A stretch of DNA of 64,000 nucleotides, from positions 14,357 through 78,356 of the forward strand of contig JAZUCT010000011.1 of assembly GCA_045639255.1 (NCBI GenBank). Reading direction: 5' to 3'. Under the pieces are notes generated by a model. The model made no database searches, was not told the DNA's origin, and saw nothing but the letters and a program-made list of their open reading frames with translations. Numbering within the stretch: position 1 is the first letter of the stretch; each line of letters starts with the position of its first letter. This document shows, piece by piece, positions 23,140 to 42,409 of the stretch. Made by a program: the position numbers and the translations under genes. The stretch is from Clostridia bacterium (GTDB lineage Bacteria; Bacillota; Clostridia; Christensenellales; UBA1242).

Positions 23140-24348
23140 TTATTCCTTAATGTTATTAATAATTAATTTAACGCTTAAACCTGCGCTTGCAAGTGCAAAC
23201 ATAAGGTTATAGCCACCACAAACACCATCGATGTTAAGCATTTCACCGCTTAAATATAAGCCAGAAACAAGTTTCGATTGCGTTAAGTTAAGTTCATTAA
23301 CTTCCACTCCGCCACAAGTAACCTGATTGTTTTCGTAAGTGTCACAAACATCAAGTGCAAATTTTTTTATTTGCTTTGCAATTTGTTTTGGTGTTTTATG
23401 TTTTTCAAAAAGCCATTTAGCCAATGGTTTTGCAAACCAACCATAAAGGCAGTTAAGCATGTTTTCTGCACCTTGAACAAAAAAGTTATTTAATTTTTCT
23501 TCAATTTTTTCACACGGAACATCTGGCAATAAATCAAGATGCAACTTAAATTTTTGGTTATTGTTGCGTGCAACAACTGCACTTGCATTCATAACACAAA
23601 TTCCGCTTATGCCATTATCTTTAAAAATAATTTCACCAGTTTCAGCAAAAGTGTTTAAGGTTATTTCAACCAGTGGAGAATGTGAACTTTTTAAAATTTC
23701 ATTTTCAAATTCAACAAAAATTTTTGCTTTATGAACCCTAACACCACTTATTTGTTTTAAGTTTTGTGTTGTTTTAAAACCAACCAAACTTTTGGCAAGT
23801 GGTGTTATTGAATGCCCCAGTTCTTTGGCAAGGTTAACCGCACTTCCGCCACAACACAACAAAACATTTTTTGCTGAAATGTTTTGGTTGTTAACTTTTA
23901 ACTTAAAAATGTTGTTAACTTTTTCAATGCCCTTCACTTCACTTTCAAGCATTATTTCTGCACCAAATTTTGCAAGCGTGTTTGAAAGCACAGAAACAAC
24001 ACACGCACTGCTGTTGCTTGTTGGATAAACTCGGCCTTCGCTATCGGCATAAAAACTTAAACCCCATTCTTCAAGTTGAACAAGAATTGGTTTTGCAAAA
24101 TTTGTTAATTTTTCTTTGTTTGCAAATTTTTCAAAAATTTGCTTAACAAATTCTGAATTGTTATAACAATGACCATATAAGTTTGTGTTTGCAATGTTGC
24201 ATCGACCATTGCCAGTTGCCAAAAGTTTTTTGCCAAGTTTGTTTTCTTTTTCAATAATAAGTGTTTTTAAGTTGTTTTTGCTTGCAAGTGCACCTGCAAA
24301 CAAACCACCTGCACCACCGCCAACAATAACTAAATCGTAAGTTTTCAT
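23140..24348 (-). CDS. HI0933/BaiN-like flavoprotein (NAD(P)/FAD-dependent oxidoreductase)
   Basis: 402 aa. YDLVIVGGGAGGLFAG N-terminus, TGNGRCN motif, and C-terminal GGYNLMFALASG-like tail. Confidence 0.65.
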   Translation of the reverse strand: MKTYDLVIVGGGAGGLFAGALASKNNLKTLIIEKENKLGKKLLATGNGRCNIANTNLYGHCYNNSEFVKQIFEKFANKEKLTNFAKPILVQLEEWGLSFYADSEGRVYPTSNSSACVVSVLSNTLAKFGAEIMLESEVKGIEKVNNIFKLKVNNQNISAKNVLLCCGGSAVNLAKELGHSITPLAKSLVGFKTTQNLKQISGVRVHKAKIFVEFENEILKSSHSPLVEITLNTFAETGEIIFKDNGISGICVMNASAVVARNNNQKFKLHLDLLPDVPCEKIEEKLNNFFVQGAENMLNCLYGWFAKPLAKWLFEKHKTPKQIAKQIKKFALDVCDTYENNQVTCGGVEVNELNLTQSKLVSGLYLSGEMLNIDGVCGGYNLMFALASAGLSVKLIINNIKE

Positions 24349-24416
24349 TTTATTTTCCTTTGTGAATATTTTAATATATTGTTAAAATTTAAGCAACCAA
24401 ATAAAAAAACGCAAAT

Positions 24417-24516
24417 GAGATTTAAGGTTAGGACTTCGAAGTTTTACGCTACGCTAGATTCTCGTTCGCCATATAATGGCTCCGAGAATGACACAAGGGG
24501 GGGTAGTGCCTTGAAT
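24417..24516. repeat. Structured repeat, copy A (single arm 24447-24493 plus extra sequence)
   Basis: CGCTACGCTAGATTCTCG-TTCG-CCATataATGG-CTC-CGAGAATGACA matches the arms of the elements at 27487-27621 and 42184-42313. Flanked by the direct repeat CCAAATAAAAAAACGCAAAT (24397-24416 and 24522-24541). Confidence 0.7.
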
Positions 24517-24527
24517 GCAAACCAAAT

Positions 24528-24556
24528 AAAAAAACGCAAATTGCTTTGCGTTTTTA
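24528..24556 (-). terminator. rplL rho-independent terminator
   Basis: CGCAAA-TTGC-TTTGCG hairpin (24535-24550) with a T-run on the minus strand, 20 nt after the rplL stop. Confidence 0.7.
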
Positions 24557-24577
24557 AAAAGGTTCAATTGTTTAAAA

Positions 24578-24949
24578 CTATTTAAGTTCAACAGTTGCGC
24601 CAGCTTCTTTAAGTTTTGCTTCAAGAGCTTTTGCTTCGTCTGCTGAAACATTTTCTTTAAGTGTTGAAGGTGCACCATCAACAAGAGCTTTTGCTTCGCC
24701 TAGGCCAAGACCAGTTGCTTCACGAACTGCTTTAATAACTGCAATTTTGTTTGCTCCAACTTCTTTAAGAACAACATTAAATTCAGTTTTTTCTTCAACT
24801 GCTTCTGCAGCAGCACCAACTGCTGGACCAGCAACTGCCATAGCAGCAGCACTTACTCCAAATTTTTCTTCTAGCATTTTAACTAGGTCGTTAACTTCAA
24901 CCAAAGTTAAGCTTTCAATTTCTTCAACGATTTTATTTAAATCAGCCAT
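24578..24949 (-). CDS. rplL: 50S ribosomal protein L7/L12
   Basis: 123 aa. Ala-rich hinge followed by [27 protein letters not shown]. Confidence 0.97.
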
Positions 24950-25054
24950 TTTAAATTCTCCCTTATAATTAATATTTTTTTAATTTAAGTTTAACCATTC
25001 AACTTTAAAGGCAGGCAATTTTAACTTTTGCCAAAAGTTTTAAGTTTTGAAAAC

Positions 25055-25537
25055 CTATTTCTTTTCACTAACCTGAGAAAGCACGCAAGCCAAACTGCGA
25101 ACTGGTGCTTTAAGCATACCAAGCAATTGAGCAATAAGCACTTCTTTTGAAGGAAGTTTTGAAAGTTTTTCAATGTAACTTAATTCAACAGCTTTGCCGT
25201 TAACAATGCCACCTTTTGCAGAAAGTTCCTTAATATCTTTCATTGCGTTGTAAGCAATTCTTGGTGCGCCAACTTCATCTTCATAACTGAATGCAATTGA
25301 AGTGTTGCCTTCAAGAACTTTATCAAAGCCTTCAATGTTAAGGTCTTTTAAAGCAAGGTTAATAAGTCTGTTCTTATAAACTTTATATTCACCGTTTTCT
25401 TTTCTGAAAGCGTTTCTAACTTTGTTATCTTGTTCAACAGTTAAACCGGTGTAGTTAAGAAGAACAACTGATTTTGCATTGGAAATTTTTTCTTTAATTT
25501 CTTCAACAATTTGTTGTTTTGCTGTTTTGTTAGACAT
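25055..25537 (-). CDS. rplJ: 50S ribosomal protein L10
   Basis: 160 aa, immediately upstream of rplL. L10 pattern (VVLLNYTGLTVEQDNKVR). Confidence 0.95.
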   Translation of the reverse strand: MSNKTAKQQIVEEIKEKISNAKSVVLLNYTGLTVEQDNKVRNAFRKENGEYKVYKNRLINLALKDLNIEGFDKVLEGNTSIAFSYEDEVGAPRIAYNAMKDIKELSAKGGIVNGKAVELSYIEKLSKLPSKEVLIAQLLGMLKAPVRSLACVLSQVSEKK

Positions 25538-25708
25538 ACAATTTCCCCCTTTATAATTTAAGAAAAAAATAAACCCTTATGCCATATTAAAGCATAAGGG
25601 TTTTATAAAAAACACTTATAAATTAACCTCGGTAAGCAACCAAAATGGAAATTATATTGCATTGAATTGCAAAACTTACTGTCTATGGCAATAAAAACTT
25701 ATTAAATT
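25538..25708 (-). promoter_or_regulatory. rplJ leader with an intrinsic terminator/attenuator (candidate L10 leader)
   Basis: About 170-nt leader between the promoter and the SD. Contains the hairpin AAACCCTTATGC...GCATAAGGGTTT (25571-25603) followed by a T-run on the minus strand, about 25 nt before the rplJ ATG. Confidence 0.5.
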
Positions 25709-25715
25709 CTGAGAT

Positions 25716-25744
25716 ATTCTAGCACTAAAAAATAATATTGTCAA
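25716..25744 (-). promoter_or_regulatory. Sigma-A promoter of the rplJ-rplL operon
   Basis: The minus strand reads TTGACA (25744-25739), 17-nt spacer, TAGAAT (25721-25716). Confidence 0.7.
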
Positions 25745-25756
25745 GGGTTTTTAGCA

Positions 25757-25783
25757 ACAAAAAAACTCGCAATGCGAGTTTAT
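25757..25783 (-). terminator. rpsR operon terminator
   Basis: AAACTCGC-AAT-GCGAGTTT hairpin (25763-25781) plus a T-run on the minus strand. Confidence 0.65.
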
Positions 25784-25796
25784 TTTTAAAAAAACA

Positions 25797-26069
25797 TTAA
25801 TCTCCTACATAAGGTAGAAGTGCCATATTTCTTGCGCGTTTAATTGCAGTTGTAACTTCGCGTTGGTGTTTTGCGCAAGTGCCAGTTTGACGCCTTGAAA
25901 CAATTTTACCTTTTTCAGTGATATATTTTCTTAGTTTGTTAACATCTTTATAGTCAATGCATTCAACTTTATCAGCACAGAAAGCACAAACTTTTTTTCT
26001 TGACATTCTTTTTTTCTTGAAAACTTTTTCTTCTGATTTAACAAACTTTTCTTCTTGCATATCAGCCAT
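25797..26069 (-). CDS. rpsR: 30S ribosomal protein S18
   Basis: 90 aa. [15 protein letters not shown]...[25 protein letters not shown]. Confidence 0.97.
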
Positions 26070-26112
26070 TTAAATTTCTCCTTTTAATAAAATAATTAAT
26101 TCCGGTTAACAC

Positions 26113-26520
26113 CTAGAATGGAAGATCTTCATCATCAACAGGTTGAAGAGTTGGTTTAACATCTTCTTTTGGTTCTTGGCTGTATTCCCTTGAACCATCA
26201 TCTTGTTTAGGGCCAACAAATTCAACATCTTCAACAACCACTTCGGTTACTGTGCGTTTTGAACCATCGTTTGCTTCATAACTTCTGGTTTGCAAACTTC
26301 CAACAACGCCAATTCTTGAACCTTTTTTGAAATATTTGTTAACAAATTCTGCGTTGTTTCGCCATGCAACAAGATTAATAAAATCTGCTTCACGGTTGCC
26401 ATCGGCATTTGCAAATCTGCGTTGAACAGCAATTGAAAATCTTGCAAAAGCAACTCCGCTTGGTGTTGTTTGATATTCTGGATCACGGGTAAGGTTACCC
26501 ACTAAAATAACTTTATTCAT
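26113..26520 (-). CDS. ssb: Single-stranded DNA-binding protein
   Basis: 135 aa. MNKVILVGNLTRDPE OB-fold N-terminus and acidic tail DDEDLPF. Confidence 0.95.
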   Translation of the reverse strand: MNKVILVGNLTRDPEYQTTPSGVAFARFSIAVQRRFANADGNREADFINLVAWRNNAEFVNKYFKKGSRIGVVGSLQTRSYEANDGSKRTVTEVVVEDVEFVGPKQDDGSREYSQEPKEDVKPTLQPVDDEDLPF

Positions 26521-26540
26521 TTCTTAATCTCCTTAAATTC

Positions 26541-26822
26541 CTATTTTGCAATGCAAAGGCTTCTTAACACATGTTCGTTAATTTTAAAGAAGCTTTCAAT
26601 TTTAGCTGGAACAGTGCTGTCAGCAACAAAGTTCACAAGAACATAGAACCCTTCGTTTTTGAAATTAACAGTGTAAGCGAATTTTTTAAGGCCAGTTTTT
26701 TCAACTTCAACATCAGTTCCGCCGTTAGAAGCAATTATTTCAGTAACTTTGTTAATGATGCTTTCTCTTTCTTCATCAGAGATGCTTGGAGAAATGGCAA
26801 AATTCAATTCATACTTTTTCAT
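26541..26822 (-). CDS. rpsF: 30S ribosomal protein S6
   Basis: Start at ATG 26822 (MKKYELNF), preceded by GGGAGG. Sits in the rpsF-ssb-rpsR order. Confidence 0.9.
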   Translation of the reverse strand: MKKYELNFAISPSISDEERESIINKVTEIIASNGGTDVEVEKTGLKKFAYTVNFKNEGFYVLVNFVADSTVPAKIESFFKINEHVLRSLCIAK

Positions 26823-26946
26823 TTTTTTAACCTCCCTTTTGGACTTATGGTCAGTGCATTTAAGCACCAACAAGGAACAGTTTTTTAACTGCTACCAAGC
26901 ATTATAGCAAAAAGAAAAGAAAATTGCAAGTGTTATATTGTTTCTT

Positions 26947-27279
26947 TTATGAATCATATTTATAAGCAATTTTATTTTTCTTTTTTCCGTTTAAATTTAA
27001 TATGTAACCATCTTCAACTTTGCACCACCAATTCGGATTGTTTCCTGCAAGTGCATTTAAAATTTCATTATCTGTTATATCAGAACTTTTAACCAACTTT
27101 AAATGTTCTATTTTAATTTCTGCATTAATATCGTCTGCAAAAGTGATAGGGTCTTCACGAAAAAATTCAAATTTTCCATCTCTTATTTCAGCACTTAAAA
27201 TATGACCTTCATCACCGTAATAAATTCCAAATTTTTCATATTCATTTGAAATAATTTTTACTCTGTCTAAATATTTCAT
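26947..27279 (-). CDS. Small cytoplasmic protein, immunity/antitoxin-like (possible DUF4926-like fold)
   Basis: Start at ATG 27279 (MKYLDRVKII), preceded by AGGGAG. It sits directly after the stop of the toxin-like fragment. The family assignment is only a resemblance. Confidence 0.4.
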   Translation of the reverse strand: MKYLDRVKIISNEYEKFGIYYGDEGHILSAEIRDGKFEFFREDPITFADDINAEIKIEHLKLVKSSDITDNEILNALAGNNPNWWCKVEDGYILNLNGKKKNKIAYKYDS

Positions 27280-27290
27280 TTTTTCTCCCT

Positions 27291-27479
27291 TTACTCTGCC
27301 CAACCACCAAATGGAGTGTTATTATGCAATTTACCATTTGGATAAGCCGTCCAGCCTGTTATAAATCTATAAGTTTGTTTTTCTTTTAAACCCTTACCTT
27401 TTAATTCTAATTCAATATTAACTTTTTGTCCATAAATATTTAAATTTCCTAAAAAGCAAAAAGGTGACAAAATTTTTAA
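27291..27479 (-). pseudogene. 5'-truncated fragment, possibly the C-terminal end of a polymorphic-toxin-type protein
   Basis: 62 sense codons are open between TAA (27482-27480) and TAA (27293-27291), giving ...LGNLNIYGQKVNIELELKGKGLKEKQTYRFITGWTAYPNGKLHNNTPFGGWAE. There is no ATG or RBS. The 5' end lies 8 nt from repeat copy B. Confidence 0.3.
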
Positions 27480-27486
27480 TTATTTC

Positions 27487-27621
27487 TTATAGCTATCGCT
27501 AGATTCTCGCTTCGTGGAACAAGTTCCACTTTGCAAGAATGACAATAAGAGAAATATAACCAATTCCTGTCATTCTTGGAGCGAACATAGTGAGTGAACG
27601 AGAATCTAGCGATAGCGATAA
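27487..27621. repeat. Structured inverted-doublet repeat, copy B (REPIN/MITE-like)
   Basis: 23-nt terminal inverted repeats TTATAGCTATCGCTAGATTCTCG and CGAGAATCTAGCGATAGCGATAA with 1 mismatch. Each arm continues into an inner hairpin and (C/T)AAGAATGACA. The central spacer is about 25 nt. Confidence 0.75.
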
Positions 27622-27650
27622 AACAAAAAACAGCGTAATGCTGTTTATTT
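27622..27650 (-). terminator. recR terminator
   Basis: AACAGC-GTAAT-GCTGTT hairpin (27629-27645) flanked by an A-run and a T-run. Confidence 0.6.
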
Positions 27651-27652
27651 TT

Positions 27653-28246
27653 TTATAACATTTTTCGTTCGCTTAGGGCTTTTCCAAGAGTTACTTCATC
27701 GGCAAATTCAAGGTCAGAACCCATTGAAATTCCTTGTGCAATTCGGCTAACTTTAATTTCAAGTGGTTTTAAAAGTTTTGCAATATACATTGCTGTTGCT
27801 TCGCCTTCCACATCTGGATTGGTTGCAAGCACAACTTCTTCCACTTCGCCAGCATTAACCCTTTGCAAAAGTTCTTTAATTCTTATATCGTTTGGACCTT
27901 TGTTGTTAAGCGGATTTAACACACCGTGCAAAACATGATATACACATTCAAAATTTTTAACTTTTTCAAGTGCAATAATATCTTTTGGATAAGCAACCAC
28001 ACAAACAATTTTTGAACTTCTGTTTGCACAAATATAGCATGGTTGAACATCGGTGAAATTTCCACAACAAGAACAATATTTCACTTCGTTTTTAACACGC
28101 ATAATGTTTTCGGCAAAATCTTTTGCATCTTGTTCTGGCATGTTAATAACAGCATAGGCATAGCGAGATGCTGTTTTTCTGCCCACTCCACCAAGTTTTG
28201 TGAAACTGTTTGTTAACTTTTCCAAACTTTCAATATAGTTTTTCAT
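27653..28246 (-). CDS. recR: Recombination protein RecR
   Basis: 197 aa. Helix-hairpin-helix N-terminus (LPGVG-like GGVGRKTASR), C4 zinc finger (CSCCGN...CYIC) and Toprim domain. Confidence 0.95.
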   Translation of the reverse strand: MKNYIESLEKLTNSFTKLGGVGRKTASRYAYAVINMPEQDAKDFAENIMRVKNEVKYCSCCGNFTDVQPCYICANRSSKIVCVVAYPKDIIALEKVKNFECVYHVLHGVLNPLNNKGPNDIRIKELLQRVNAGEVEEVVLATNPDVEGEATAMYIAKLLKPLEIKVSRIAQGISMGSDLEFADEVTLGKALSERKML

Positions 28247-28249
28247 TTT

Positions 28250-28567
28250 TTAAAACATACCATTCAAACCTGATGGCATTCCTCCCATTGTTTCTTGTTG
28301 AGTTTCTTTCAAGGTTGAAATTGCATCGTTATAAGCGGCAATAATCATATCTTCCAGCATTTCTGTATCGTCTGGGTCCACAATTTTAGGGTCGATTTTA
28401 AGTTGTTCAATTTCATACTTGCCGCTAACTTGAATGGTTACAAGCCCATTGCCAGAAACACCTTCAAAAACAGTTTCTTCAAGTTCTTGTTGTGCTTTTT
28501 CCATTTGTTCTTTCATTGCTTGCGCTTGTTTCATTAAGTTTTGCATATTAAAATTATTCATTGCCAT
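28250..28567 (-). CDS. ybaB: Nucleoid-associated protein YbaB/EbfC
   Basis: 105 aa. MQNLMKQAQAMKEQMEKAQQEL... and the conserved dnaX-ybaB-recR order. Confidence 0.9.
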   Translation of the reverse strand: MAMNNFNMQNLMKQAQAMKEQMEKAQQELEETVFEGVSGNGLVTIQVSGKYEIEQLKIDPKIVDPDDTEMLEDMIIAAYNDAISTLKETQQETMGGMPSGLNGMF

Positions 28568-28571
28568 ATTT

Positions 28572-30091
28572 TTATTCCTTTTTTATTATAAGTTTATTTC
28601 CAAATAATCGTTTTAAAACCTGCAATTTTTTATTTTTTTCGGTTTTTTGGTCTGTTTCAATTAATATATCATGGTTTGGCAGATATTTTGAAACAATATT
28701 TTGCAAAGTTTTAAGGTTTTCTGGCACTTCCATAAGATTTTTATTGCTTTCACCAGCAAAAATTATGAACTTATTGTTTTCAATTTTCACTTCGGTAACT
28801 TCACCACAAGCAACAAACAAAATGCCAGTTTTATTGTTTCTAAGTTCGGTTATCACCTTGCCCCACACTGAATTAGGTGAAACTTGTGAACTTTGTTTTG
28901 GCAAAGCGGGGCTTTGCTTTGCCTTTATTCGTTTTTTAGTATGTCTGCAATTTGTTGTTCAATTTTGTTAAAGCGATTTTCAATATCTTGCAAATTAAAG
29001 TTATTTTCGGTTAAAATTGCTTCCAAACTTATTGTTTCAAAAGCAATTCGTGGATTGCTTGCAAATTTTAAAGTTTGCTCGGCATTGCCAAACTTTTCAA
29101 GGCAAGAAAGCAATTTTGAAACGCTTGCAGTTTTTGCTTGCTGTTGCATTTTTTCAAAAACATCGGCTGGCAGGTTAAGAAGCAAGTTTGCATTTTCGCA
29201 ACTGTTAATAAGCACCAAATCTCTGAAATGATTGGTTAAATCACGGTTTAACATATTAACACTTTTTCCGCCCGATAGAATTTCGGTAAGAAGTGTTATA
29301 TAAGCATTAACATTTTTGTTTAAAATATATCCAACAAGTGAAATTAAAGTTTCTTTGCTGGCAGATCCCAACACTTGCAAGGTTTTTGAAAAAGTTACAT
29401 TGTTTGCACAGTAACTTGCACACATATCGGCAACTGAAAGTGCATCACGCACACTGCCTTCGCCCGCTTTTGCAATAAGGTCAAGGGCAGGTTCTTCATA
29501 ACTTATTCCGCTTTCGGCATAAACTTTGCCAATGTGTTTTGCAAGTTCAACATAATCCACCAATCTGAAATCAAACCTCATGCAACGGCTTAAAATTGTT
29601 GCAGGAAGTTTTTGAACTTCGGTGGTTGCCAAAATGAAAACTGCGTGTGCAGGTGGTTCTTCCAAAGTTTTTAAAAGTGCGTTAAATGCACTGTCGGTTA
29701 GCATATGAACTTCATCGATTATATAAACTTTATATTTGCCAACAACTGGTGCATATTTAACTTTTTCCCTTATTTCCCTGATTTCATCAACACGGTTATT
29801 GCTGGCAGCATCAATTTCCAAAATATCCATATTTGCTGGGTTAGAAAGTGCTTTGCAGGCTTCACATTCAAGGCAAGGTGAACCGTTAACCGAATGCAAG
29901 CAATTAATGGCTTTTGCAAAAATTTTTGCGCAAGAAGTTTTGCCTGTTCCCCTTGTTCCAGTGAATAAATAAGCATGGCTTATTGCATTGTTTTTAATTT
30001 GGTTTTGCAATGTTGTTGTTATGTGATTTTGCCCCACAACTTCTTCAAAAGTTTTTGGGCGATATTTTCTGTAAAGTGCCAAATAACTCAT
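28572..30091 (-). CDS. dnaX: DNA polymerase III tau/gamma (DnaX). Two frames joined by a putative -1 frameshift at 28937..28931
   Basis: ORF1 (28925..30091; start ATG 30091 after AAAGGAAG) carries the AAA+ clamp-loader domains (GTRGTGKTS, zinc module CxxCxxC, DEVHML, SRC). ORF2 (28572..28904, open upstream in the -1 frame) has the pattern I associate with the DnaX C-terminal domain (VWGKVITELRNN...). The frames meet at A_AAA_AAC. Confidence 0.8.
28900..28937 (-). promoter_or_regulatory. Candidate -1 programmed ribosomal frameshift signal in dnaX
   Basis: The minus strand reads CTA_AAA_AAC GAA TAA. The heptamer A AAA AAC is at 28937-28931, followed by a 7-nt spacer and the hairpin GGCAAAGC-AAAGCCCC-GCTTTGCC (28923-28900). 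Confidence 0.6.
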
Positions 30092-30204
30092 ATAATGCTT
30101 CCTTTTAAATTTCAAAAAATATTATATCATTTTTGCATTTATTTAGCAAATAAATATGTTGGGCAAACAAACAAAAAAGTTGATAAAAATATCAACTTAA
30201 TTGT

Positions 30205-30459
30205 TTATTTTTTTCCATCTTGTTTAAGTGAATTTTCAAGTTGTTTAATTTTATCAAAGTTTTCTTGCATTTTGGAAAGCAAAATTTCACTTTCAAGTTC
30301 TAGGGCAAGCACTTGTTTATCGAATTCAACAATATTTCTATCTTGCTTAACTTTTTGCAAAACATCGTTTCGTTTTTGTTTAAGTTCGTTTAACTGCAAA
30401 ATAAGTTTTTGTTGAATATCCAATGCTTTTTCATATTCTTTAAATTGTTCTTTATTCAT
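30205..30459 (-). CDS. Small coiled-coil protein, unknown function
   Basis: 84 aa, heptad-rich and K/E/Q/L-rich, with no recognisable motif. Lies 4 nt downstream of the LRR paralog. Confidence 0.4.
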   Translation of the reverse strand: MNKEQFKEYEKALDIQQKLILQLNELKQKRNDVLQKVKQDRNIVEFDKQVLALELESEILLSKMQENFDKIKQLENSLKQDGKK

Positions 30460-30463
30460 ATTG

Positions 30464-33403
30464 TTACCTCTCTAACTCGTCACTTTTATAAACAACATAT
30501 TGGTTATCAAAACTATCCCCCGCATAACCTTTGCCATCTAAATCATACGATCCATAGTTAATTGGCTTATACACTTTGCTTTTTTTGTTATATTTCAAAA
30601 TAACACTTGTTAAATCGTTTCTGCCCATTCCAACAGTTATTATTTTAAGCGGTTTTTTGTTTTCTTGGTTATATTGTTCCATAAATGCCCTTGCACCAAG
30701 CATAAACTTTTCATAAATTTCTTCTTCATCGTTTTCATAAATGTTAAAGTTGCAAACTTCAACATTGTTAAACACTGCATAACCTTGTTCTTTGTTAACA
30801 TAAAGGGTGGATTTTGCAATAATGGTTCCTTTATTGTTTCTTATAACCAAATTTTGCACGCTTGGGTGAATAATGCTGGCACTCATAATGCCTGCGCCCA
30901 TACCTTCAAGGTGTGCACAGCAGTTGCAAAGCTTGCCCAAAACAAAGTTGAGTGGGTCGGCTTTGTTTAACCATTCAAAAGTGAAGTTTTCTGCCGTGTT
31001 AACAGCGCTGTTAACTGAATTGAAACAAAAATTTTCGCATTTGTTAAGGTTTGAATCAAGTTTGCTAAGTTTATTCAAATAAATATCTTCATTAAGTGGT
31101 GAAGACAAAATGTTATCCTTAATTTTTTCTTTAAAGTTAATATATTTTTTATGTTTTTTTATTTCTTTAAGGTTGCCCGATTCAATGGCTGCAAGAACTT
31201 CATACATTTTAATAAGGCTCAAATTATTTTTCAGTTCATAACCCATTTTGTTGGCATTAATTATTCTTGCATTATTAAATGCCCTTTGTGAATCGTCAGC
31301 AGCAAAATATTTAAGCACAACTTTTGCAATATGTTGGTTGTGTTCGTTAACCCCAATAAGTTGCCTTAATGCATAGTTATAGAAATGTTCAACCGTTGGT
31401 TTAAGTTGGCGTTGCGAACCTTTATTGCTGGTGTTAGATTCTTGAATTTCTTCAAAGTTGTTATAACTTCTTGAAATAAAGCCTGTAACTTCTTTTTCCG
31501 CTTTCCACATTTCATCAAAAATATATGTGTGCTTATCCTTTTTGGAAATCAAGAAGTCTGTGAATTCTTTTTTAAATCCATAAATTTTCATATCCTTAAA
31601 TGCATCAACCAAATCTTCAACGGTTATATTTCTGTTGGTTAAAATAAAGGTTAAAAATTCTGAAATTTTTTGGTCGTAACTTATTTGCGTAACTTTTCCG
31701 CTTGCCGATTTGGTTTCATATGTTAAATTTTGAAAACCACCAAGATTATAGAAAAGCACACTTAAAAATTCCTTATCAAAACTGCCAAGCGCATACATAT
31801 TATCGAACTTCTTTTTAAGGGTTGCAATGAATTTATCGAACCAATCGAAGTTTAACAAATTAATAAATTCAACAAAACTTTTGCTTTGGTTGAGATGTTC
31901 TTTTGGAATAAAAATTAAGGAATTAACATAATCAATGTTTTTAATAATTTTTTGAAGATTTGAGTTGTTCCAATTGTTTAAAAAATCGAAAATAGTGCAA
32001 TTATAAGCGGTGTTTAATCTTTCTTGTGCTAAATTAATTTTTTCGAAATTTTTTAAACCAATTTTTTCATAATTTTCCCTGAACTGCATATCGTTCCAAT
32101 TTCTTAAAAAGAAATTTGCAAACCCGCTTCCCCTTACTTCAACATAATCGTTGCTTATTATTTTATTTGAAGTGAAAAACTTGTCGCCAATTTTACAAAT
32201 ATATTTTAATGCGCCACCTTTTTCAATGTTGCAAGTTGGCGAAATTTCAAAATAATCAAGTTTATGGCTATCTTCAAATGCATTTTCTTGAATGTTATAA
32301 AGGTTTGTTGGCATATTAATAATTTTTTCAATGTTAAAACAACAGTTGAAACAATCTTCTTCAATAAGTTTAAGGTTTGAACCTTCTTCAAATTCAACAG
32401 TTTTAAGTTTTTTGCAAATAAAAAATAATGATTTTGAAAGTGATGTTGCTTTGTTTGGAATTATAACACTTTCAAGGTTTGAACAAAGTCTAAAAACTTC
32501 GTTTGAAAAAGTGAAACTGTTTTCAAGTTTTGAAATGTTTACAGTTTTTAAGTTTGTGCAAGTATCAAAAGCATTGTTTTCAATTCTTTCAAGTTCGCCA
32601 GAAATGTTAACGCTTTCAATGTTTGATTCTGCAAAAGCAAACGAACCAATTTGTTTAAGTTTTTTAGAAAACTGAACTTCTGTTAAACTTTTACAACTGT
32701 AAAAAGCATTTTCGTTAATAAAAGTTACTTGCGATAAATCTGCACTTTTCAAACTTTCACACATTTTAAAACAATCAATGCCAACATAGTTAACAGAACT
32801 TAAATTTTCAAGTTCTTCAAGGTTAACACAATTTTTAAAGCAATCGTTTTCAAGTTTAATGCCTTCACTGAATTCAAGCCCATTTTTTAAAGCAAATTCT
32901 TGTTTTTGGTTTTGCGTTTTAAATTGAACCTGTTTTAAATTTTTGCAACCAAAAAATGCACCGCATTTTATTTGGTTAAGCATTTCAGGCAATGTTATTT
33001 GTTCCAAACCGCAATTATAAAAAACATGTTCTTCAATAACTTTCATTGTGCTTGGCAGTTGAATTGATTTAAGATTTGCACAATCTGCAAAAGCAAACTC
33101 GTTAATAAGTTTAACTGTTTTTGGCAAAACAACTTCTTGCAAACTTTTGCAATAATTAAAAGCATACTTGCCAATTTCAAGTTCAGGGTTTTTAAAAACA
33201 ACTTTTTTTACAGGCGAAAACGAAAATGCTTTGTTGTTAAGCGAAACATTTTCAGGAACTTCAATTTCAAATTCTTGTTGGCAATTTTCAAAAGCATTTG
33301 AGCCAATAAATCTTACCCCTTTCCAAAACTTTTCAGGATTTTTTGAAAGCAGTTTTAAATCGGCATCGGTAACTTTTAAAAGAACACCATTTTTCTTTTT
33401 CAT
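30464..33403 (-). CDS. Large BspA-type leucine-rich-repeat (LRR_5) protein with an unrecognised conserved C-terminal region, paralog 1
   Basis: 979 aa with no signal peptide. The N-terminal ~400 aa consists of repeats of the form AF.nC.sL..i.lP..v..I...aF. The C-terminal half is collinear with 35313..38189 (GSQRQLKPTVEHFYN; FEWLNKADPLNFVLGKLCNCCAHLEG). Confidence 0.65.
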   Translation of the reverse strand: MKKKNGVLLKVTDADLKLLSKNPEKFWKGVRFIGSNAFENCQQEFEIEVPENVSLNNKAFSFSPVKKVVFKNPELEIGKYAFNYCKSLQEVVLPKTVKLINEFAFADCANLKSIQLPSTMKVIEEHVFYNCGLEQITLPEMLNQIKCGAFFGCKNLKQVQFKTQNQKQEFALKNGLEFSEGIKLENDCFKNCVNLEELENLSSVNYVGIDCFKMCESLKSADLSQVTFINENAFYSCKSLTEVQFSKKLKQIGSFAFAESNIESVNISGELERIENNAFDTCTNLKTVNISKLENSFTFSNEVFRLCSNLESVIIPNKATSLSKSLFFICKKLKTVEFEEGSNLKLIEEDCFNCCFNIEKIINMPTNLYNIQENAFEDSHKLDYFEISPTCNIEKGGALKYICKIGDKFFTSNKIISNDYVEVRGSGFANFFLRNWNDMQFRENYEKIGLKNFEKINLAQERLNTAYNCTIFDFLNNWNNSNLQKIIKNIDYVNSLIFIPKEHLNQSKSFVEFINLLNFDWFDKFIATLKKKFDNMYALGSFDKEFLSVLFYNLGGFQNLTYETKSASGKVTQISYDQKISEFLTFILTNRNITVEDLVDAFKDMKIYGFKKEFTDFLISKKDKHTYIFDEMWKAEKEVTGFISRSYNNFEEIQESNTSNKGSQRQLKPTVEHFYNYALRQLIGVNEHNQHIAKVVLKYFAADDSQRAFNNARIINANKMGYELKNNLSLIKMYEVLAAIESGNLKEIKKHKKYINFKEKIKDNILSSPLNEDIYLNKLSKLDSNLNKCENFCFNSVNSAVNTAENFTFEWLNKADPLNFVLGKLCNCCAHLEGMGAGIMSASIIHPSVQNLVIRNNKGTIIAKSTLYVNKEQGYAVFNNVEVCNFNIYENDEEEIYEKFMLGARAFMEQYNQENKKPLKIITVGMGRNDLTSVILKYNKKSKVYKPINYGSYDLDGKGYAGDSFDNQYVVYKSDELER

Positions 33404-33474
33404 ATTTTAACTCCGTTAATATTATAAAACACCATTAAGTTAAAGTCAATATCCACTTTGTTTTATTGATATAA

Positions 33475-34077
33475 CTAAAACAAACTTTTTAAAAAACTTA
33501 GTTTTTGTTTTATGCGTGAAATGCTGTTATAAACACTTTTTGGTGTGGTGTTTAAAACAGAAGATATTTCTGAAATTGAAACACCTTCAATATATAAATT
33601 AAAAACTTTTTGTTCGGCCTTTGAAAGTTTTTGTTTAATGTTTTCTAAAATTTCTTGTGCCTGACTTTTTGAAATATATTCTTCTTCTGGTGAATTATCG
33701 CTTGAAGGCAACACAACAAATTGCGGGGTGTTGTTTTCTTGCATAATTTTAACTTTACCATCTTCGGTAACTTCCATAAACTCGTTAAGTGGTAAGTTTT
33801 TAAGGCGGTTTGCACTTTTAACTGCATCTTGAATGTTTCGTTCAATGCACAAAGTTGCAAAAGTTTTAAAACTGCAATTTTGCTGTGCCGAAAAATGCGT
33901 GATTGCACTGAAAAGCCCTATCATGCCTTCCTGAATTAAATCGTCAATTGTGCCACCAACAAGAAAATATCTGCGGGCAATTTTGTTAACAAGTTGCTTG
34001 TTATCTTCCAGCAAAAAGGCAATTTCTTGCTGAGTTAAGCAATCGAAATTTAAATTTTCATACTTAAAATTGTTCAT
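33475..34077 (-). CDS. sigH: RNA polymerase sigma factor SigH-like (sigma-70 family)
   Basis: 200 aa. ...RRYFLVGGTIDDLIQEGMIGLFSAITHF...SFKTFATLCIERNIQDAVKSANRLKNLPLN parallels B. subtilis SigH. The context mrnC-rlmB-sigH is conserved in Firmicutes. Confidence 0.8.
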   Translation of the reverse strand: MNNFKYENLNFDCLTQQEIAFLLEDNKQLVNKIARRYFLVGGTIDDLIQEGMIGLFSAITHFSAQQNCSFKTFATLCIERNIQDAVKSANRLKNLPLNEFMEVTEDGKVKIMQENNTPQFVVLPSSDNSPEEEYISKSQAQEILENIKQKLSKAEQKVFNLYIEGVSISEISSVLNTTPKSVYNSISRIKQKLSFLKSLF

Positions 34078-34080
34078 AGC

Positions 34081-34803
34081 CTAACACCTTTGCCTGTTTG
34101 CTTCAAACACCGCCACCCCACAAGCAACGCTTGCGTTAAGGCTGTTAACTTTGCCTTGCATTGGAAGTGTTAACACTGCATCGCACAAGTTTTTTGTAAG
34201 TTTTGAAACACCAAAACCTTCACTTCCAACAACAATTGCAATTGCACCTGTTAGGTTTTGTGAATAAATGTTTTCGCCACCAAGTTCAAGGGCATAAACC
34301 CAAACATTTTGTTGTTTCAAACTTTCAATTGCATTGTTAAGGTTTGTTACCCTTGCAATTTTAACATGGTTAATTGCACCAGCACTTGTTCGGCTTACGG
34401 TTTCTGTTACACCAACACTGCGGTGTTTTGGAATAATTATGCCATCAACATTTGCACATTCGCAAACACGAATAATGCTTCCAAAATTGTGCGGATCTTG
34501 AATTCCATCAAGAATAACAATAAATGGTGGTTTGTTTTTTTGTTTTGCGTTTTGCAAAATATCTTCCACTTCGCAATAATCAAATTCTTGTGTGAATGCA
34601 ATAAAATTTTGGTGGTGTTTTGTTTTGGATTTGCTATCAAGCACCGATTTTGAAACATATTGAATGTTCACTTTTTGTTCCCTTGCCATTCTTAAAATGC
34701 GGGCACTCATGTTATCGGTGGGATTTGCAACTGTTAAAATTTTATCCAATTCCCTTTTTGCTGAAAGTGCTTCGAAAACACTGTTTTTTCCTTCAAGTTG
34801 CAT
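34081..34803 (-). CDS. rlmB: TrmH-family 23S rRNA 2'-O-methyltransferase (RlmB/YacO)
   Basis: 240 aa. SpoU motifs ILDGIQDPHNFGSIIR, IVVGSEGFGVS and SLNASVACGV. Confidence 0.85.
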   Translation of the reverse strand: MQLEGKNSVFEALSAKRELDKILTVANPTDNMSARILRMAREQKVNIQYVSKSVLDSKSKTKHHQNFIAFTQEFDYCEVEDILQNAKQKNKPPFIVILDGIQDPHNFGSIIRVCECANVDGIIIPKHRSVGVTETVSRTSAGAINHVKIARVTNLNNAIESLKQQNVWVYALELGGENIYSQNLTGAIAIVVGSEGFGVSKLTKNLCDAVLTLPMQGKVNSLNASVACGVAVFEANRQRC

Positions 34804-35207
34804 TAAAAATTCTCCTTAAACAAAATTTCAAAAATTTCTTCAATTCGTGTGTTTTGATTTGAAATATATAAATAACCAATAAGTGCTTCAAATCCCGTTG
34901 CGTTCTTATAATCTTGAAGTGAACTGTGTTTTGCTTTGTTGTTGGTTTTATAGTTAACTGCACGACGAACCACATCTTGTTCTTCTTGTGTTAAATGTGG
35001 TGTTAAATTTTTAATCATTTCACATTGTGCGCTTGCTTTAACAAAAGTGTTTGCTGTTTTGTGAAGTGCGTTTGTTTTTTGGTTGCCTTTTGAAACAAGC
35101 CTGCTTCGAACATAAACCGAAAACACTGCATCGCCAACAAAAGCAAGTTCTTGGCTGTTAATAAGGCTTGCTTGAAATGGCGAAAAATTTTTAAATTGTT
35201 CAAACAT
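34803..35207 (-). CDS. mrnC: Mini-ribonuclease III
   Basis: 134 aa. LAFVGDAVFSVYVR RNase III signature and small size. Its stop overlaps the rlmB start. Confidence 0.8.
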   Translation of the reverse strand: MFEQFKNFSPFQASLINSQELAFVGDAVFSVYVRSRLVSKGNQKTNALHKTANTFVKASAQCEMIKNLTPHLTQEEQDVVRRAVNYKTNNKAKHSSLQDYKNATGFEALIGYLYISNQNTRIEEIFEILFKENF

Positions 35208-35312
35208 AATTAAATATTTCCTTTAATAATTAATTATAGCATTTAACTTAACAAAACGCAACCTTAAAAATTTAACAAAAAACAAGGCAATGCCTTGTTT
35301 TAAATTTATAAT

Positions 35313-38189
35313 TTAAAGTTCAATTTCTGCATCGGTAAGTTTAACAAGCACATGTTGTTTATCAAGGCTGTCACCGGTGTAGCCACATTTATCAACATCA
35401 TATTCGCCATAGTCAATGGATTTATATATTTTTGATGAAGCGTGGTTTGCCCTTATAATATCATATAAATCATTCCTATCCATTCCCACAGTTAAAATTT
35501 CAAGTGGTTTTGAATTTTCTTTGTTATATTGCTTAAAAAATGCCCTTGCACCAAACAAAAGTTTTTCATAAATTTGTTGTTTGTTTTCGTTTTGATTAAA
35601 AGCAACTTGAACGGTGTTGAACACGCCATAGCCTTGTTTTCTGTTAACATAAAGGGTGGCTTTTGCAACAATTTTGCCTTCGCCATCACGCACAACCAAA
35701 TTTTGAACATCTGGGTGAATTATGCTTGCATTCATAATGCCATATCCTGCACCTTCAAGGTGTGCACAGCAATTGCAAAGTTTGCCAAGCACCAAATTAA
35801 GCGGGTCGGCCTTGTTAAGCCATTCGAAAGAAAATTCGTTGTTTGCAATGTTTGTTAAGTTCTGCAAAGTTTTAACGCTTAAATCTTGGCATTGTTTAAT
35901 TTTTGCATCTAAAACACTAAGTTTATCCAAACAATCTTTTTCGCTAAGGCTTGTTGAAAGAATGTTTTCGCCAGCAATTTCGCTTTGCTTTTTAAGTTTA
36001 TAATGCATTCTTAATTTTCTTAATTGCTCTTTGTTACCCGATTCAATGGCATCAAAAATTTCTTTCTTCTTTTCTGCGCTTATGTTTTCTTTCAGTTCAT
36101 AACCCAAACGATTTGCATTAATTTCCCTTGCAAAATCAAAGGCTTGTTGGGCAAAACTGCCTTGATAATATTTTTTAACAATTTTTGCAATATGTGTGTT
36201 GTGTTCAGTTATTCCATCTATTTTAAGAAAAATGTTATAAAAACTTTCAACGGTTGGTTTAAGTTGTTCTTGCGAACCACGATTTCTGGTGTTTGCCAAT
36301 TGCACTTCTTCAAAGCAGTTATAACTTTCAGCAATGAACGAATCGAATTCTTTTGAAACTTGCATCATTTCATCAAAAGTTAAAGTGTGCCTATCTTTTC
36401 GGCTTAAAAGAAAATCTGTGAATTCTTGTTTAAAACCTTCAATTCGCATATCATAAAACTTATAAACAAGTTTTTTGGTTGTAAGTTTTCCGCTTAAAAT
36501 TAAGTTTGAAAAAAATTCACTTACTTTTTGGCCATAATCAACTTCGCCATGCGGGGTTTCAACAATTTTTTCCATTCCGCCAAGGTTAAAAAATATTTTA
36601 AACAAAATTTCTTTTTCAAAGTTTGAAAGAAATTCAATTCCAATATCCTTTTTTCTAAGCGTTGAAACAAAAGTGTTAAACCATTTAAGCGAAAGTTCGT
36701 TTGCAACATCAACAATGTTTTTGTTTTGCCAATTACTTACAACTTTATAAACATCAATATTAAGAAACTCGGCATTTTTTATTAATAATTTAACGCTTGG
36801 TAAATCGCGTTTATCAATCAAATCGGTTAAAACTGTTGAAAACTTAAAAACATCTTCTGCATAAAATTTTTTTGCAACTGTTAGTATTTTGTTAAGTTCA
36901 TCTTCACTTATTTTTTCAAAGTTTTGCCTGAAAGTTTTGTTATTCCAGTTTTCAATAACCGAAACTGCAACACCTGAATTTATGCCAAGTTTAACCCAAT
37001 CGTTGCCCATTGGTTCTGATGAAGTAAAGAACTTGCCATTCACTTTGCACAAATAAGTTAAAAGCGCACCTTGGCTTATGTTATTGTTGTTTAAGTTGTT
37101 AATGTTGCGTGGAATTTCAAAACATTTAAGTTTTGAACAACCAGCAATTGCATCTTTTTTAATAATTAAATTTTGTGGTTTAAAATTTTCAAACTGTTCA
37201 AGTTCACAGCAGTTTTTAAAGCAATCGGCTTCAAACAACATTATATGTGCATCTTCAAATGTAACTTTTTTAAGATTGGTGCAATTTTCAAACAATCCCC
37301 TTGAAATTGTGGTTAATTTTTCTGGAATATAAATTTGTTTTAAATTTTCACAATCGGCAAAACATCTTTCACGAATATATATTGATGAATATGCACTTTT
37401 GTTGTTAAGATTAATGTTTTCAATAAACTTACATTTTGCAAATGCAAATTTTCCCAACACCCAAAGTTTTGTGTTTGAAAAATCAACGCTTGTAAGTTCG
37501 GTGTTATAAAAAGCATTATCTTCAATTGCGTGCAATTCTTCATAGAATTTAACTTTGCTAAGCGACATGCAATTCATAAACGCTTTTTTAGGAATAAGTT
37601 TTAATAAAGATAAATCTATTTCTTTTAATTCAAAACAATTTTCAAAACAAGCATCTTCAATGTTAATAACATTTTCAAAATTTTTAACTTCTTCAAGGCT
37701 TACACAATTTTTAAAGGCTTCGTTTTTAATAAAAATAACATTTGTGAAAATTTCAGTGTTTTCTTGTTGTTTTGGAAACTCAACTTTTTTTAACTTTAAA
37801 CAATTTTTAAATGCAAAATCACCAACCGATTTAACAGAATTTGGCAAAGTTATTTCTTTAAGCCCACTTCCGTTAAAGCAATTAACACCAATTTCTGCAA
37901 TTGTGTTGGGCAATTCAACCTTTCTAAGTTGCGAACAACCCATGAACAAACTTTCTGGCAACTTAACAAGTTTTCTGTTAATTTTAACAAAGTTAACATT
38001 GCTTTGGGCAAATGCATAGTTAAAAACATTAACCATTGCAGGCACTTCAATATCAAACGATTTAAGGCATTTTTTAAATGCATATTCGCCAATTGCCAAA
38101 ACATTTTCCCAGAATCTATCTGGGTTTTTGTTAAGCAATTCTAAATCGGCATCTTTAACTTCTGTTAAAATGTGATTTATTATTTTCAT
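35313..38189 (-). CDS. Large BspA-type LRR protein with the same conserved C-terminal region, paralog 2
   Basis: 958 aa, collinear with 30464..33403 from the N-terminus (VKDADLELLNKNPDRFW) to the C-terminus (FEWLNKADPLNLVLGKLCNCCAHLEGAGYGIMNASIIHP). Confidence 0.65.
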   Translation of the reverse strand: MKIINHILTEVKDADLELLNKNPDRFWENVLAIGEYAFKKCLKSFDIEVPAMVNVFNYAFAQSNVNFVKINRKLVKLPESLFMGCSQLRKVELPNTIAEIGVNCFNGSGLKEITLPNSVKSVGDFAFKNCLKLKKVEFPKQQENTEIFTNVIFIKNEAFKNCVSLEEVKNFENVINIEDACFENCFELKEIDLSLLKLIPKKAFMNCMSLSKVKFYEELHAIEDNAFYNTELTSVDFSNTKLWVLGKFAFAKCKFIENINLNNKSAYSSIYIRERCFADCENLKQIYIPEKLTTISRGLFENCTNLKKVTFEDAHIMLFEADCFKNCCELEQFENFKPQNLIIKKDAIAGCSKLKCFEIPRNINNLNNNNISQGALLTYLCKVNGKFFTSSEPMGNDWVKLGINSGVAVSVIENWNNKTFRQNFEKISEDELNKILTVAKKFYAEDVFKFSTVLTDLIDKRDLPSVKLLIKNAEFLNIDVYKVVSNWQNKNIVDVANELSLKWFNTFVSTLRKKDIGIEFLSNFEKEILFKIFFNLGGMEKIVETPHGEVDYGQKVSEFFSNLILSGKLTTKKLVYKFYDMRIEGFKQEFTDFLLSRKDRHTLTFDEMMQVSKEFDSFIAESYNCFEEVQLANTRNRGSQEQLKPTVESFYNIFLKIDGITEHNTHIAKIVKKYYQGSFAQQAFDFAREINANRLGYELKENISAEKKKEIFDAIESGNKEQLRKLRMHYKLKKQSEIAGENILSTSLSEKDCLDKLSVLDAKIKQCQDLSVKTLQNLTNIANNEFSFEWLNKADPLNLVLGKLCNCCAHLEGAGYGIMNASIIHPDVQNLVVRDGEGKIVAKATLYVNRKQGYGVFNTVQVAFNQNENKQQIYEKLLFGARAFFKQYNKENSKPLEILTVGMDRNDLYDIIRANHASSKIYKSIDYGEYDVDKCGYTGDSLDKQHVLVKLTDAEIEL

Positions 38190-38274
38190 TGTGTATCTCC
38201 ATTTTTATTATAAATAATAACCCCCTGAAAGTCAATATCCAATTTTTTAACAACGCTTATTTTAAAAATATAAT

Positions 38275-38303
38275 TTGACTTAATTATTTAATGTTGATAT
38301 AAT
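38275..38303 (+). promoter_or_regulatory. Strong sigma-A promoter upstream of metG
   Basis: TTGACT (38275-38280), 17-nt spacer ending in TGa, TATAAT (38298-38303). Confidence 0.7.
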
Positions 38304-38384
38304 TTAAGCATGAAAACAAATTTTCAAGTGCAACAACAACTTTAAAAAGCATAGCGCCCCTATGCATTTTTGTGATAAAAAATG

Positions 38385-38431: not shown

Positions 38432-38446
38432 AATTGGAGAATTTTT

Positions 38447-40450: not shown

Positions 40451-40455
40451 TAATT

Positions 40456-40959: not shown

Positions 40960-40963
40960 TAAA

Positions 40964-40996: not shown

Positions 40997-40999
40997 TTT

Positions 41000-42183: not shown

Positions 42184-42313
42184 TGAGATTCTCGCTGCGG
42201 TGACAAGTCACCAATGACACGGGGAGTGGAGAATTATGTTTTATGGATTTTAACCATTTCCTTATGTCATTCTCGGAGCGGGTTTATACCCCGAACGAGA
42301 ATCTAGCGGTAGC
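42184..42313. repeat. Structured inverted-doublet repeat, copy C (left arm degraded)
   Basis: The right arm TGTCATTCTCGGAGC-GGGTttatACCC-CGAACGAGAATCTAGCGGTAGCG is the reverse complement of the copy A arm with a different inner hairpin. The left arm is GAGATTCTCG-CTGCG-GTGACaaGTCAC-C-AATGACA. Confidence 0.7.
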
Positions 42314-42375
42314 GTTATTAAAGACATCTTTTTTAAAATAAGAAAAAATTTAGTAAAAAATTTTAAAAAAGGGTA

Positions 42376-42404: not shown

Positions 42405-42409
42405 AACCA

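Follow-up and report, generated by a model that had tools for sequence, protein, structure and literature searches.

The closest described relatives of the repeats reported here are hairpins that are recognized as single-stranded DNA (ssDNA). The Neisseria Transformation Sequence (NTS) has been defined as CGTCATTCCCGCGMAVGCGGGAATCYRG, an oriented extension of the dRS3 palindrome ATTCCC-N8-GGGAAT, and a degenerate "Ssn-related motif" (SRM) takes in relatives of the NTS across many phyla (Chenal et al., Nat Commun 2025; PMC11893778). The motif is bound and cut by small single-domain GIY-YIG proteins (SsnA, cd10448), but only when it is ssDNA and only on one of the two strands; the nuclease is inactive on RNA (PMC11893778). 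With Neisseria SsnA, the three bases that lie upstream of the palindrome affected cleavage most, the C directly 3' of the palindrome is the nucleotide that matters most to binding, and the cut site lies a few nucleotides 5' of the motif (PMC11893778). SRM inverted repeats measure 20-50 nt, and the ssnA gene is often flanked by repeats, an NTS-ssnA-NTS arrangement that has been likened to an insertion sequence and hypothesized to be domesticated (PMC11893778). Here we describe a family of hairpin repeats, which we call arms, in a 64-kb stretch of the Clostridia bacterium contig JAZUCT010000011.1 (the window). The ends of these arms are those of NTS/SRM repeats, and the arms appear to represent the NTS/dRS3 SRM kind of DNA-level hairpin repeat, in a long version with two tiers that is specific to a low-GC, spore-forming lineage of Firmicutes.

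The arms occur at three intergenic loci (24446-24493, 27487-27621, and 42185-42316), where they form one single arm (A) and two inverted doublets (B and C, each with a left and a right arm); four arms are full and one is truncated. The repeat family is real and lies far beyond chance. The 13-mer CGCTAGATTCTCG stands exactly at 24452(+), 27497(+), 27599(-), and 42296(-), against a mean of 0.18 copies in shuffles, 0 of 100 of which reached four copies. A covariance model was built on four window arms together with two arms of relatives. Scanned against the 64 kb, it finds its four full window arms at E values of 4e-21 to 3.5e-17, by construction (arm A, matched over 24442-24496, at 1.8e-18; B-left at 3.5e-17; B-right at 1.4e-20; C-right at 4.4e-21); all other scores have E values of at least 0.6, and the truncated arm C-left goes undetected. 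An earlier sequence-only reading of this DNA had counted five arms at three loci, all of them intergenic. Both statements hold, the count being accounted for by the 13-mer positions together with the truncated arm.

On the strand opposite to the one used in that reading, the arm consensus is TGTCA-ATTCTCG-internal loop-inner stem-loop-inner stem-internal loop-CGAGAAT-CTAGCG(N)TAGCG. Its constant outer parts are the 5' flank (T)GTC, the 7-bp outer stem ATTCTCG/CGAGAAT, and the 3' flank C-TAG-CG(N)TAGCG. Read on the TGTCA strand, the window arms have the form TGTCATTCTCG...CGAGAATCTAG, and NTS/SRM repeats the form CGTCATTCCCGCG...GCGGGAATCYRG; flanks and outer stem are the same. The 5' flank of the motif, HGTCWY, appears as TGTCAT, with the 5' GTCA, in all five window arms and in the arm of a relative from a sister species (L018), and as TGTAAT in that of another relative (L019). 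The palindrome ATTC...GAAT follows, and the arms, at 41-47 nt from TGTCA to CTAG, fall within the 20-50 nt of SRM hairpins. In four of the five window arms, as in L019, the 3' flank (a C directly after the palindrome and then YRG) reads GAAT-CTAG. The exceptions are GAAT-CTAA in L018 and GAAT-CTCA in the decayed C-left, and the C itself is kept in 5/5 window arms. Like NTS/SRM repeats, moreover, the arms are extragenic, clustered, and oriented.

The same ends recur in canonical SRMs of other phyla. A pattern scan for the arm ends over one genome per species (596 Gb) gave ten genome matches, which is about the number that chance would give for a 21-base gapped pattern in that much DNA (our own estimate is ~8); the argument for identity therefore rests on those hits that lie in SRM arrays and match the published pattern. 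The matches in Gammaproteobacteria (RBG_16_37_9, three contigs), Coxiellaceae, and Fibrobacter metagenome-assembled genomes (MAGs) are short perfect hairpins, e.g. TGTCATTCTCGGGCGAAGACCCGAGAATCTAGC, within arrays of similar hairpins, and GTCATTCTCGGGCGAAGACCCGAGAATCTAG is an example of a canonical SRM from other phyla. The match in a Dehalococcoidales MAG adjoins TGTCATTCCCGCGAAGGCGGGAATCCAG, a canonical NTS. The published SRM pattern matches 6 of the 10 hits, and the window-built model scores canonical SRMs at E values of 4e-7 to 9e-5. A metagenome scan for the long variant returned one match, on a high-GC contig (L011) whose repeat region matches an Anaerolineae sequence (L003). Nothing relevant came from a scan of viral contigs or from BLAST searches of plasmids and phages, in which a single phage tail-fibre hit (E 0.4) is chance. 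The family had initially been put forward as undescribed, which its ends, matching those of NTS/SRM repeats (PMC11893778), contradict. Oriented ssDNA hairpin repeats of the NTS/SRM type are already known; what is new is that the hairpin is interrupted and two-tiered, with an inner stem free to vary, that a TAGCG tail follows it, that doublets were copied as units, and that the host is a Firmicute. Since the published SRM pattern matches none of them, we call the arms an SRM-like variant rather than a certified member of the SRM class.

The differences from described systems are equally specific. In contrast to NTS/SRM repeats, the stem of the arms is broken by an internal loop after 7 bp and continues as a separate, variable inner stem, and the middle of the arm is 16-24 nt long rather than 0-5 nt. 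The arms also differ in their 3' tandem TAGCG tail, in their Firmicute host, in forming inverted doublets copied as units, and in that no ssnA gene was seen in the window or on the relatives' contigs. NIMEs (neisserial intergenic mosaic elements) are organized as short repeat modules in mosaic intergenic arrays. As in the Neisseria dRS3/NIME elements, where an ATTC..-N-..GAAT palindrome flanks such modules, spacer and flank modules recur from locus to locus among the window arms; the strict dRS3 sequence ATTCCC-N8-GGGAAT is absent, however, the stem here being ATTCTCG, with 16-24 nt between the half-stems of the arms that have both. The attC sites of integrons provide an analogy only. They, too, are sites folded from ssDNA (there for recombination), with conserved outer parts and a centre that varies in sequence and length and yet pairs, whereas the window arms lack an R''/L''-L'/R' core (GTTRRRY), a cassette array, and an integrase.

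Inside the outer stem of each arm lie a small internal loop, an inner stem of 3-6 bp of free sequence, and a loop of 3-4 nt. The distance between the half-stems is 16-24 nt in the six arms that have both halves, and 18-24 nt in the four such arms of the window. Two subtypes can be told apart: type 1 (A, B-right, and C-right) reads ..TCGGAGC[hairpin]CGAACGA..., and type 2 (B-left and C-left) reads ..T(T/-)GC..[hairpin with loop CTTG]..G(A/C)AGCGA.... The inner stems are GCCAT/ATGGC in A, GTGGAA/TTCCAC in B-left, GGTGA/TCACC in C-left, and GGGT/ACCC in C-right; that of B-right is degenerate. The inner stems of the seven known arms (window and relatives) are all different; compared from the loop outward, all but one show pairing of 3 bp or more (MAFFT does not place the inner stems in register). 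They are not position-homologous between the subtypes. For the five window arms combined, pairing of the inner segment is above that of shuffles (Fisher p ~0.002); for C-right taken alone, it is not significant. When folded as ssDNA, A, B-left, and C-right form the two-tier hairpin, with z scores of -2.2 to -3.2 (arm A, -9.3 kcal/mol and z -3.0; B-left, -10.8 kcal/mol on the TGTCA strand versus -8.1 on the other). Arms B-right, whose fold is no better than shuffles (z +1.3), and C-left do not form it.

The outer stem pairs in 100% of the alignment cells of six arms and shows zero covariation. Its sole change is C-to-T, which makes a T.G pair on the TGTCA strand but a C.A mismatch on its complement, and this T.G wobble is the only hint of a single-strand-specific reading. 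An outside that is constant in sequence and an inside that is constant in structure only is what would be expected if a protein reads the flanks and the outer stem and the inner part does no more than stabilize a hairpin. The sequence-only reading had noted that the inner hairpins turn over and yet pair in four of five arms, an observation that the combined test upholds, and had concluded that structure is under selection. That conclusion is plausible but unproven, because palindrome-templated mutation could also keep the inner stems paired; moreover, the outer stem is without covariation and the inner stems are out of register.

Both doublets combine an arm of each type, type 1 and type 2, around a spacer, part of which is common to the two (homology being read from TAACCAATTCC-TGTCA and TAACCATTTCCTTA-TGTCA in B and C, respectively), so that B and C descend from one doublet copied whole. 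Their description as inverted doublets was correct, with spacers of 23 and 45 nt and homology as whole units, as was that of the 23-nt terminal inverted repeat with one mismatch in the 135-nt doublet B. Arm C-left has lost the 5' half of its outer stem and its CTAGCG tail. Arm A belongs to a repeated unit longer than the hairpin, since its 3' extension is also present in L019: window positions 24432-24467 are identical to that relative at 33 of 36 nt, and the two arms have a further 3' module, AAACTTC(G/A)AAGTC, in common. The 5' flank of arm A, GCACTACCCCCCCTTG, is similar to that of C-left, CCACTCCCCG, both preceding TGTCA, and by analogy its position would correspond to the Neisseria NTS cut site. 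Two exact copies of a 22-nt direct repeat flank the ~100-nt arm A unit; copy 2 is made up of the 3' half and T-run of the rplL terminator. They could be a target-site duplication, although L018, which has no arm there, shows a similar pair of T-run motifs.

The arms of relatives lie at sites that are not orthologous to the window loci, and at a given intergenic gap the presence of an arm differs between strains and between species. In a relative whose YchF is 89% identical, the region upstream of ychF aligns on both sides and doublet C is missing. In a sister species (DnaB 93% identical), one strain (L018/L020) has a type 2 arm between cysS and pth; L021, whose DnaB protein is identical to that of L020, has a different 49-nt filler there and no arm. 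The cysS-pth gap of the window measures 12 nt and has no arm. In L019, a type 1 arm lies in a ~245-nt insert between two flavoprotein genes that are spaced by 1 nt in the window and by 8 nt in L018. Arm C-right is 92.5% identical to this arm over 40 nt, inner stem included. Two further relatives (L024 and L025; DnaB 82% identical) have no arms. For the single arms (A and those of L018 and L019), the TGTCA strand is the gene-sense, leading-sequence strand (the lagging-strand template sequence) in 3/3 cases, which we take as a weak hint. By these comparisons, the elements are gained and lost at the strain and species level, in a mosaic manner like BIMEs and NIMEs, and the family apparently behaves as mobile.

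The relatives show other repeats as well. In a more distant one (L014), the bacA-ychF gap contains three hairpin elements of the form GTCA...AATC, with different stems. A 43-nt element (AGATTGCCACGCTTCRCTTTGTTTCGCTCTCRGGTGACATTAT) is present there in two direct copies that are 95% identical (3898-3942 and 4080-4124 of L014), with a two-tier hairpin, TGTCATTACGAGGCGCATTTAATATGTGCCGTGGTAATC, between them at 3984-4023; the L014 elements look like a related repeat family with different stems. The arm-bearing insert of L019 (1237-1390) has a second hairpin type (CCCCAAAAAGTG-ATAAT-GCACTTTTCGGGG), and its motif TTCTCCTCTCCCC resembles TTCTCCACTCCCC of the doublet C spacer, which suggests mosaic modules. 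The site orthologous to locus A, just upstream of the flavoprotein gene, is where the contigs of L018 (1-197) and L019 (1-26) end; the L018 end is occupied by hairpin repeats of other kinds (GATTCCCCCGAAACCCC...GGGAAT), and repeats at this site may break assemblies. Between the flavoprotein operon and cysS, the sister species has a module of two genes, for an HTH_XRE repressor-like protein of 67 aa and a protein of 68 aa (L018 3068-3574, equivalent to L020 1700-2206). An arm remnant, CGCTAGATTTGGC, adjoins this module after a terminator, and the gap at that place in the window measures 187 nt. P0002, tried as a close relative, was uninformative, being a 43% GC organism with a fused open reading frame (ORF).

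Starting from the repeat family, its fold potential, its SRM-identical ends, its position outside predicted transcripts, and its presence or absence among relatives, the explanation that we favour, and to which we give about an even chance, is that of a DNA-level hairpin read as ssDNA by a sequence-specific protein, most likely an Ssn-type nuclease encoded elsewhere. When DNA goes single-stranded, as on the lagging-strand template or as incoming DNA in transformation or conjugation, an arm would fold. An ssDNA hairpin-binding protein, the likeliest being a small GIY-YIG nuclease of the Ssn type, would then read the constant flanks and the outer stem, and such a nuclease would nick the DNA a few nucleotides 5' of GTCA, with possible effects on recombination or on spread of the repeats. 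The inner stem would only stabilize the hairpin, so that its sequence could drift while pairing is kept. Arms would persist singly or as inverted doublets, the doublets being copied as units, with gain and loss in intergenic gaps.

Pfam and NCBIfam scans for a partner enzyme covered nearly all non-overlapping ORFs of the window, the exceptions lying inside dnaX or the arms or being the second of two leucine-rich-repeat paralogs. They found no gene for a small single-domain GIY-YIG protein (cd10448-type) in the 64 kb, and precomputed Pfam lists for ~60 kb of non-redundant DNA of relatives contain no such gene either. The sole GIY-YIG domain of the window is that of the multi-domain housekeeping protein UvrC (43420-45252, + strand). 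Its gene lies 1.1 kb from doublet C, a proximity that we read as coincidence because UvrC is a normal multi-domain repair protein. Regular-expression and tblastn probes for GIY-YIG and RAYT found nothing in the window, but they also missed the UvrC domain and are not counted as evidence. The absence of a candidate nuclease from the window and from the relatives' DNA weighs against an Ssn-type explanation, as do the near-chance number of end matches given above and several other points. Ssn homologs are reported mainly from Gram-negative bacteria (PMC11893778). The published pattern, HGTCWYN(0-2)YYVSBRHN(0-5)WNVSBRGN(0-2)RNCYNB, has no match in the window, and the seven arms fail it even with a loop of <=30 nt, at which the controls, L006 and the NTS example, match; this failure arises because the eighth (innermost) stem position is G.G and the middle is long. 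Finally, seven known arms are too few for a statistical test of covariation. An Ssn-type partner would presumably be encoded elsewhere in the genome.

The Ssn-type explanation has a bolder form, in which a GIY-YIG Ssn nuclease works as an ssDNA transposase, domesticated or selfish, and through the SRM-type ends mobilizes a non-autonomous element whose replicative unit is the inverted doublet. We consider this form unlikely. If it were true, Firmicutes would have a parallel to REPIN-RAYT that uses an enzyme of another superfamily; the variable inner hairpin would serve as a position free for "payload"; and SRM/NTS transposition would have its first direct sign in the gains and losses seen between strains.

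The sequence-only reading had itself proposed REP doublets, that is, extragenic palindromes bound as ssDNA, whose inverted doublets are mobilized by a RAYT (an IS200-like Y1 HUH transposase) with a single gene elsewhere in the genome. Arms that are palindromic, 41-47 nt long, and outside genes, inverted doublets at two of three loci that are homologous as units and have short spacers (23 and 45 nt), and patchy spread among relatives all fit this proposal. The likeness to the REP/REPIN-RAYT systems and BIMEs of Proteobacteria extends to mosaic arrays, to inverted doublets as the likely replicative unit, and to ssDNA hairpin recognition as the proposed mechanism. A GTAG/CTAC tetranucleotide next to the palindrome marks REPs, and it is reportedly needed for cleavage by RAYT. 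The window arms do not have this tetranucleotide, however, their flanks, GTCA and CTAG, being those of SRMs. Nor is there a RAYT or other Y1 transposase in the window or on the relatives' contigs; the earlier statement that the window is free of transposases stands after the Pfam and NCBIfam scans. In addition, single arms are as frequent as doublets, and the arms sit after terminators, not inside 3' untranslated regions as REPs and BIMEs do. A REP/REPIN origin thus seems improbable.

We assign a similarly low probability to inert palindromic debris. In that case, the arms would be relics of an old burst, with inner pairing maintained by mutation instead of selection: intrastrand template switching in quasi-palindromes, or hairpin nicking and fill-in, would of itself render the two halves complementary. 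Two of the five window arms are indeed decayed (B-right in its inner stem and C-left in its outer stem), density in relatives is low and patchy, and the inner stems, out of register between arms, look like replaced palindromes rather than the product of point-by-point compensation. But the flanks and the outer stem are near-invariant across three species in which neighbouring intergenic DNA is hard to align, and the gain or loss at the strain level points to recent activity.

Somewhat less probable again is a structured RNA, for example a small RNA or a hairpin that acts in mRNA stabilization or processing, in which selection for RNA folding would maintain the inner stem. Inner pairing that is kept despite turnover would fit such an RNA, as would the one variable outer-stem position, which is G.U-compatible on the sense strand, and the orientation of the three single arms, which are sense to flanking genes and in two cases lie between co-oriented adjacent genes. 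The positions of the window loci argue otherwise. Arm A is flanked by the rplL terminator (24530-24555) and by a promoter-like site belonging to a flavoprotein gene, and doublet B by the recR terminator and a promoter-like site belonging to a small hypothetical gene. Doublet C has a promoter-like site on either side, those of ychF (42151-42123) and uppP (42376-42404), which are divergent. By these calls, which are consensus scans only, all three loci are outside predicted transcription units, and A and B adjoin intrinsic terminators, as had been pointed out from the start. Furthermore, the doublets place arms on both strands, and Rfam, searched for known noncoding RNA families, has no match on the arms at the gathering score, nor any at E up to 5 over 24000-43000. 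The constant non-palindromic flanks, moreover, are those of a DNA motif whose nuclease spares RNA (PMC11893778).

Last, a MITE, also suggested at the outset and here meaning an insertion sequence reduced by deletion to a non-autonomous form, which a DDE transposase would move in trans by recognizing the 23-nt terminal inverted repeats, would suit the 135-nt doublet B with its single mismatch and the absence of elements at orthologous sites in relatives but is very improbable, because the "terminal repeats" are merely two hairpin arms, lone arms exist (A, L018, and L019) although a MITE end would not persist or spread alone, target-site duplications are absent at B and C and the 22-nt repeat at arm A has a counterpart in an arm-less relative, and plasmid, phage, and viral collections contain no similar sequence.

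SRM/NTS repeats and Ssn nucleases were described only in 2025. In the window, the same recognition ends are found in an uncultured spore-forming Firmicute, on a longer hairpin with a free inner stem. The arms are natural variants with which to ask what an Ssn-type enzyme reads in the hairpin, and the lineage offers strain comparison as a test of repeat mobility. For annotation, the arms should be masked, given the likely spurious ORFs and possible assembly breaks. ORFs 24379-24585 (+, 68 aa) and 42262-42420 (-, 52 aa) cross arms A and C-right, respectively, and are likely spurious products of the repeat.

Coordinates of the repeat arms and of the elements next to them in the window
Feature	Position	Strand	Remarks
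22-nt exact direct repeat, copy 1	24395..24416	.	ATTTGCGTTTTTTTATTTGGTT on minus strand; self-match
3' extension of arm A	24432..24445	-	AAAACTTCGAAGTC; common to arm in relative L019
Arm A, type 1, single	24446..24493	-	TGTCA-ATTCTCG-gaGCCATtatATGGCgaa-CGAGAAT-CTAGCGTAGCGT
5' flank of arm A	24494..24519	-	GCACTACCCCCCCTTG before TGTCA
22-nt exact direct repeat, copy 2	24520..24541	.	Overlaps rplL terminator 24530-24555
Doublet B	27487-27621		Left arm 27487-27544, spacer 27545-27567, right arm 27568-27621
Arm B-left, type 2	27487..27544	-	TGTCA-ATTCTTGC-aaaGTGGAActtgTTCCACgaa-GCGAGAAT-CTAGCGATAGCTATAA; outer stem with T.G wobble on minus strand
Doublet B spacer, 23 nt	27545..27567	.	ATAAGAGAAATATAACCAATTCC; homologous to part of doublet C spacer
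Arm B-right, type 1	27568..27621	+	Outer stem ATTCTTG/CGAGAAT kept with T.G wobble; inner hairpin degenerate
recR intrinsic terminator	27628..27646	-	Directly adjoins doublet B; context, outside repeat
Arm C-left, type 2, decayed	42185..42219	-	TGTCA flank, inner hairpin GGTGActtgTCACC, 3' half-stem CGAGAAT kept
Doublet C spacer, 45 nt	42220..42264	.	
Arm C-right, type 1	42265..42316	+	TGTCA-ATTCTCG-gagcGGGTttatACCCcgaa-CGAGAAT-CTAGCGGTAGCGTT

The window is gene-dense, has ~33% GC, and encodes SpoIIE and SpoVG, which marks a spore-forming Firmicute; its best named relatives are Clostridia MAGs at 55-70% protein identity. Doublet B is adjoined by two overlapping ORFs of 59 and 118 aa (26947-27470, -) without a match in Pfam or NCBIfam. 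By eye, the ORFs beside this doublet resemble an orphan toxin C-terminal fragment followed by an immunity-like protein.

Other features of the window are apart from the repeats. The murC gene is split (1811-3118, -), with ORF 2471-3118 covering positions 1-203 of TIGR01082 and ORF 1811-2422 covering positions 252-448, which would be explained by a frameshift, a pseudogene, or an assembly error. Two paralogous ORFs of 979 and 958 aa (30464-33403 and 35313-38189, both -) lie ~4.85 kb apart and share blocks of 70-80% DNA identity; the first encodes a BspA-type leucine-rich-repeat protein (PF13306). Finally, an 890-aa protein with a TraG/VirB4-type P-loop domain (PF19044, DUF87, FtsK-like) is encoded at 55639-58311 (+) and may be a conjugative or type IV secretion remnant in an otherwise housekeeping region.

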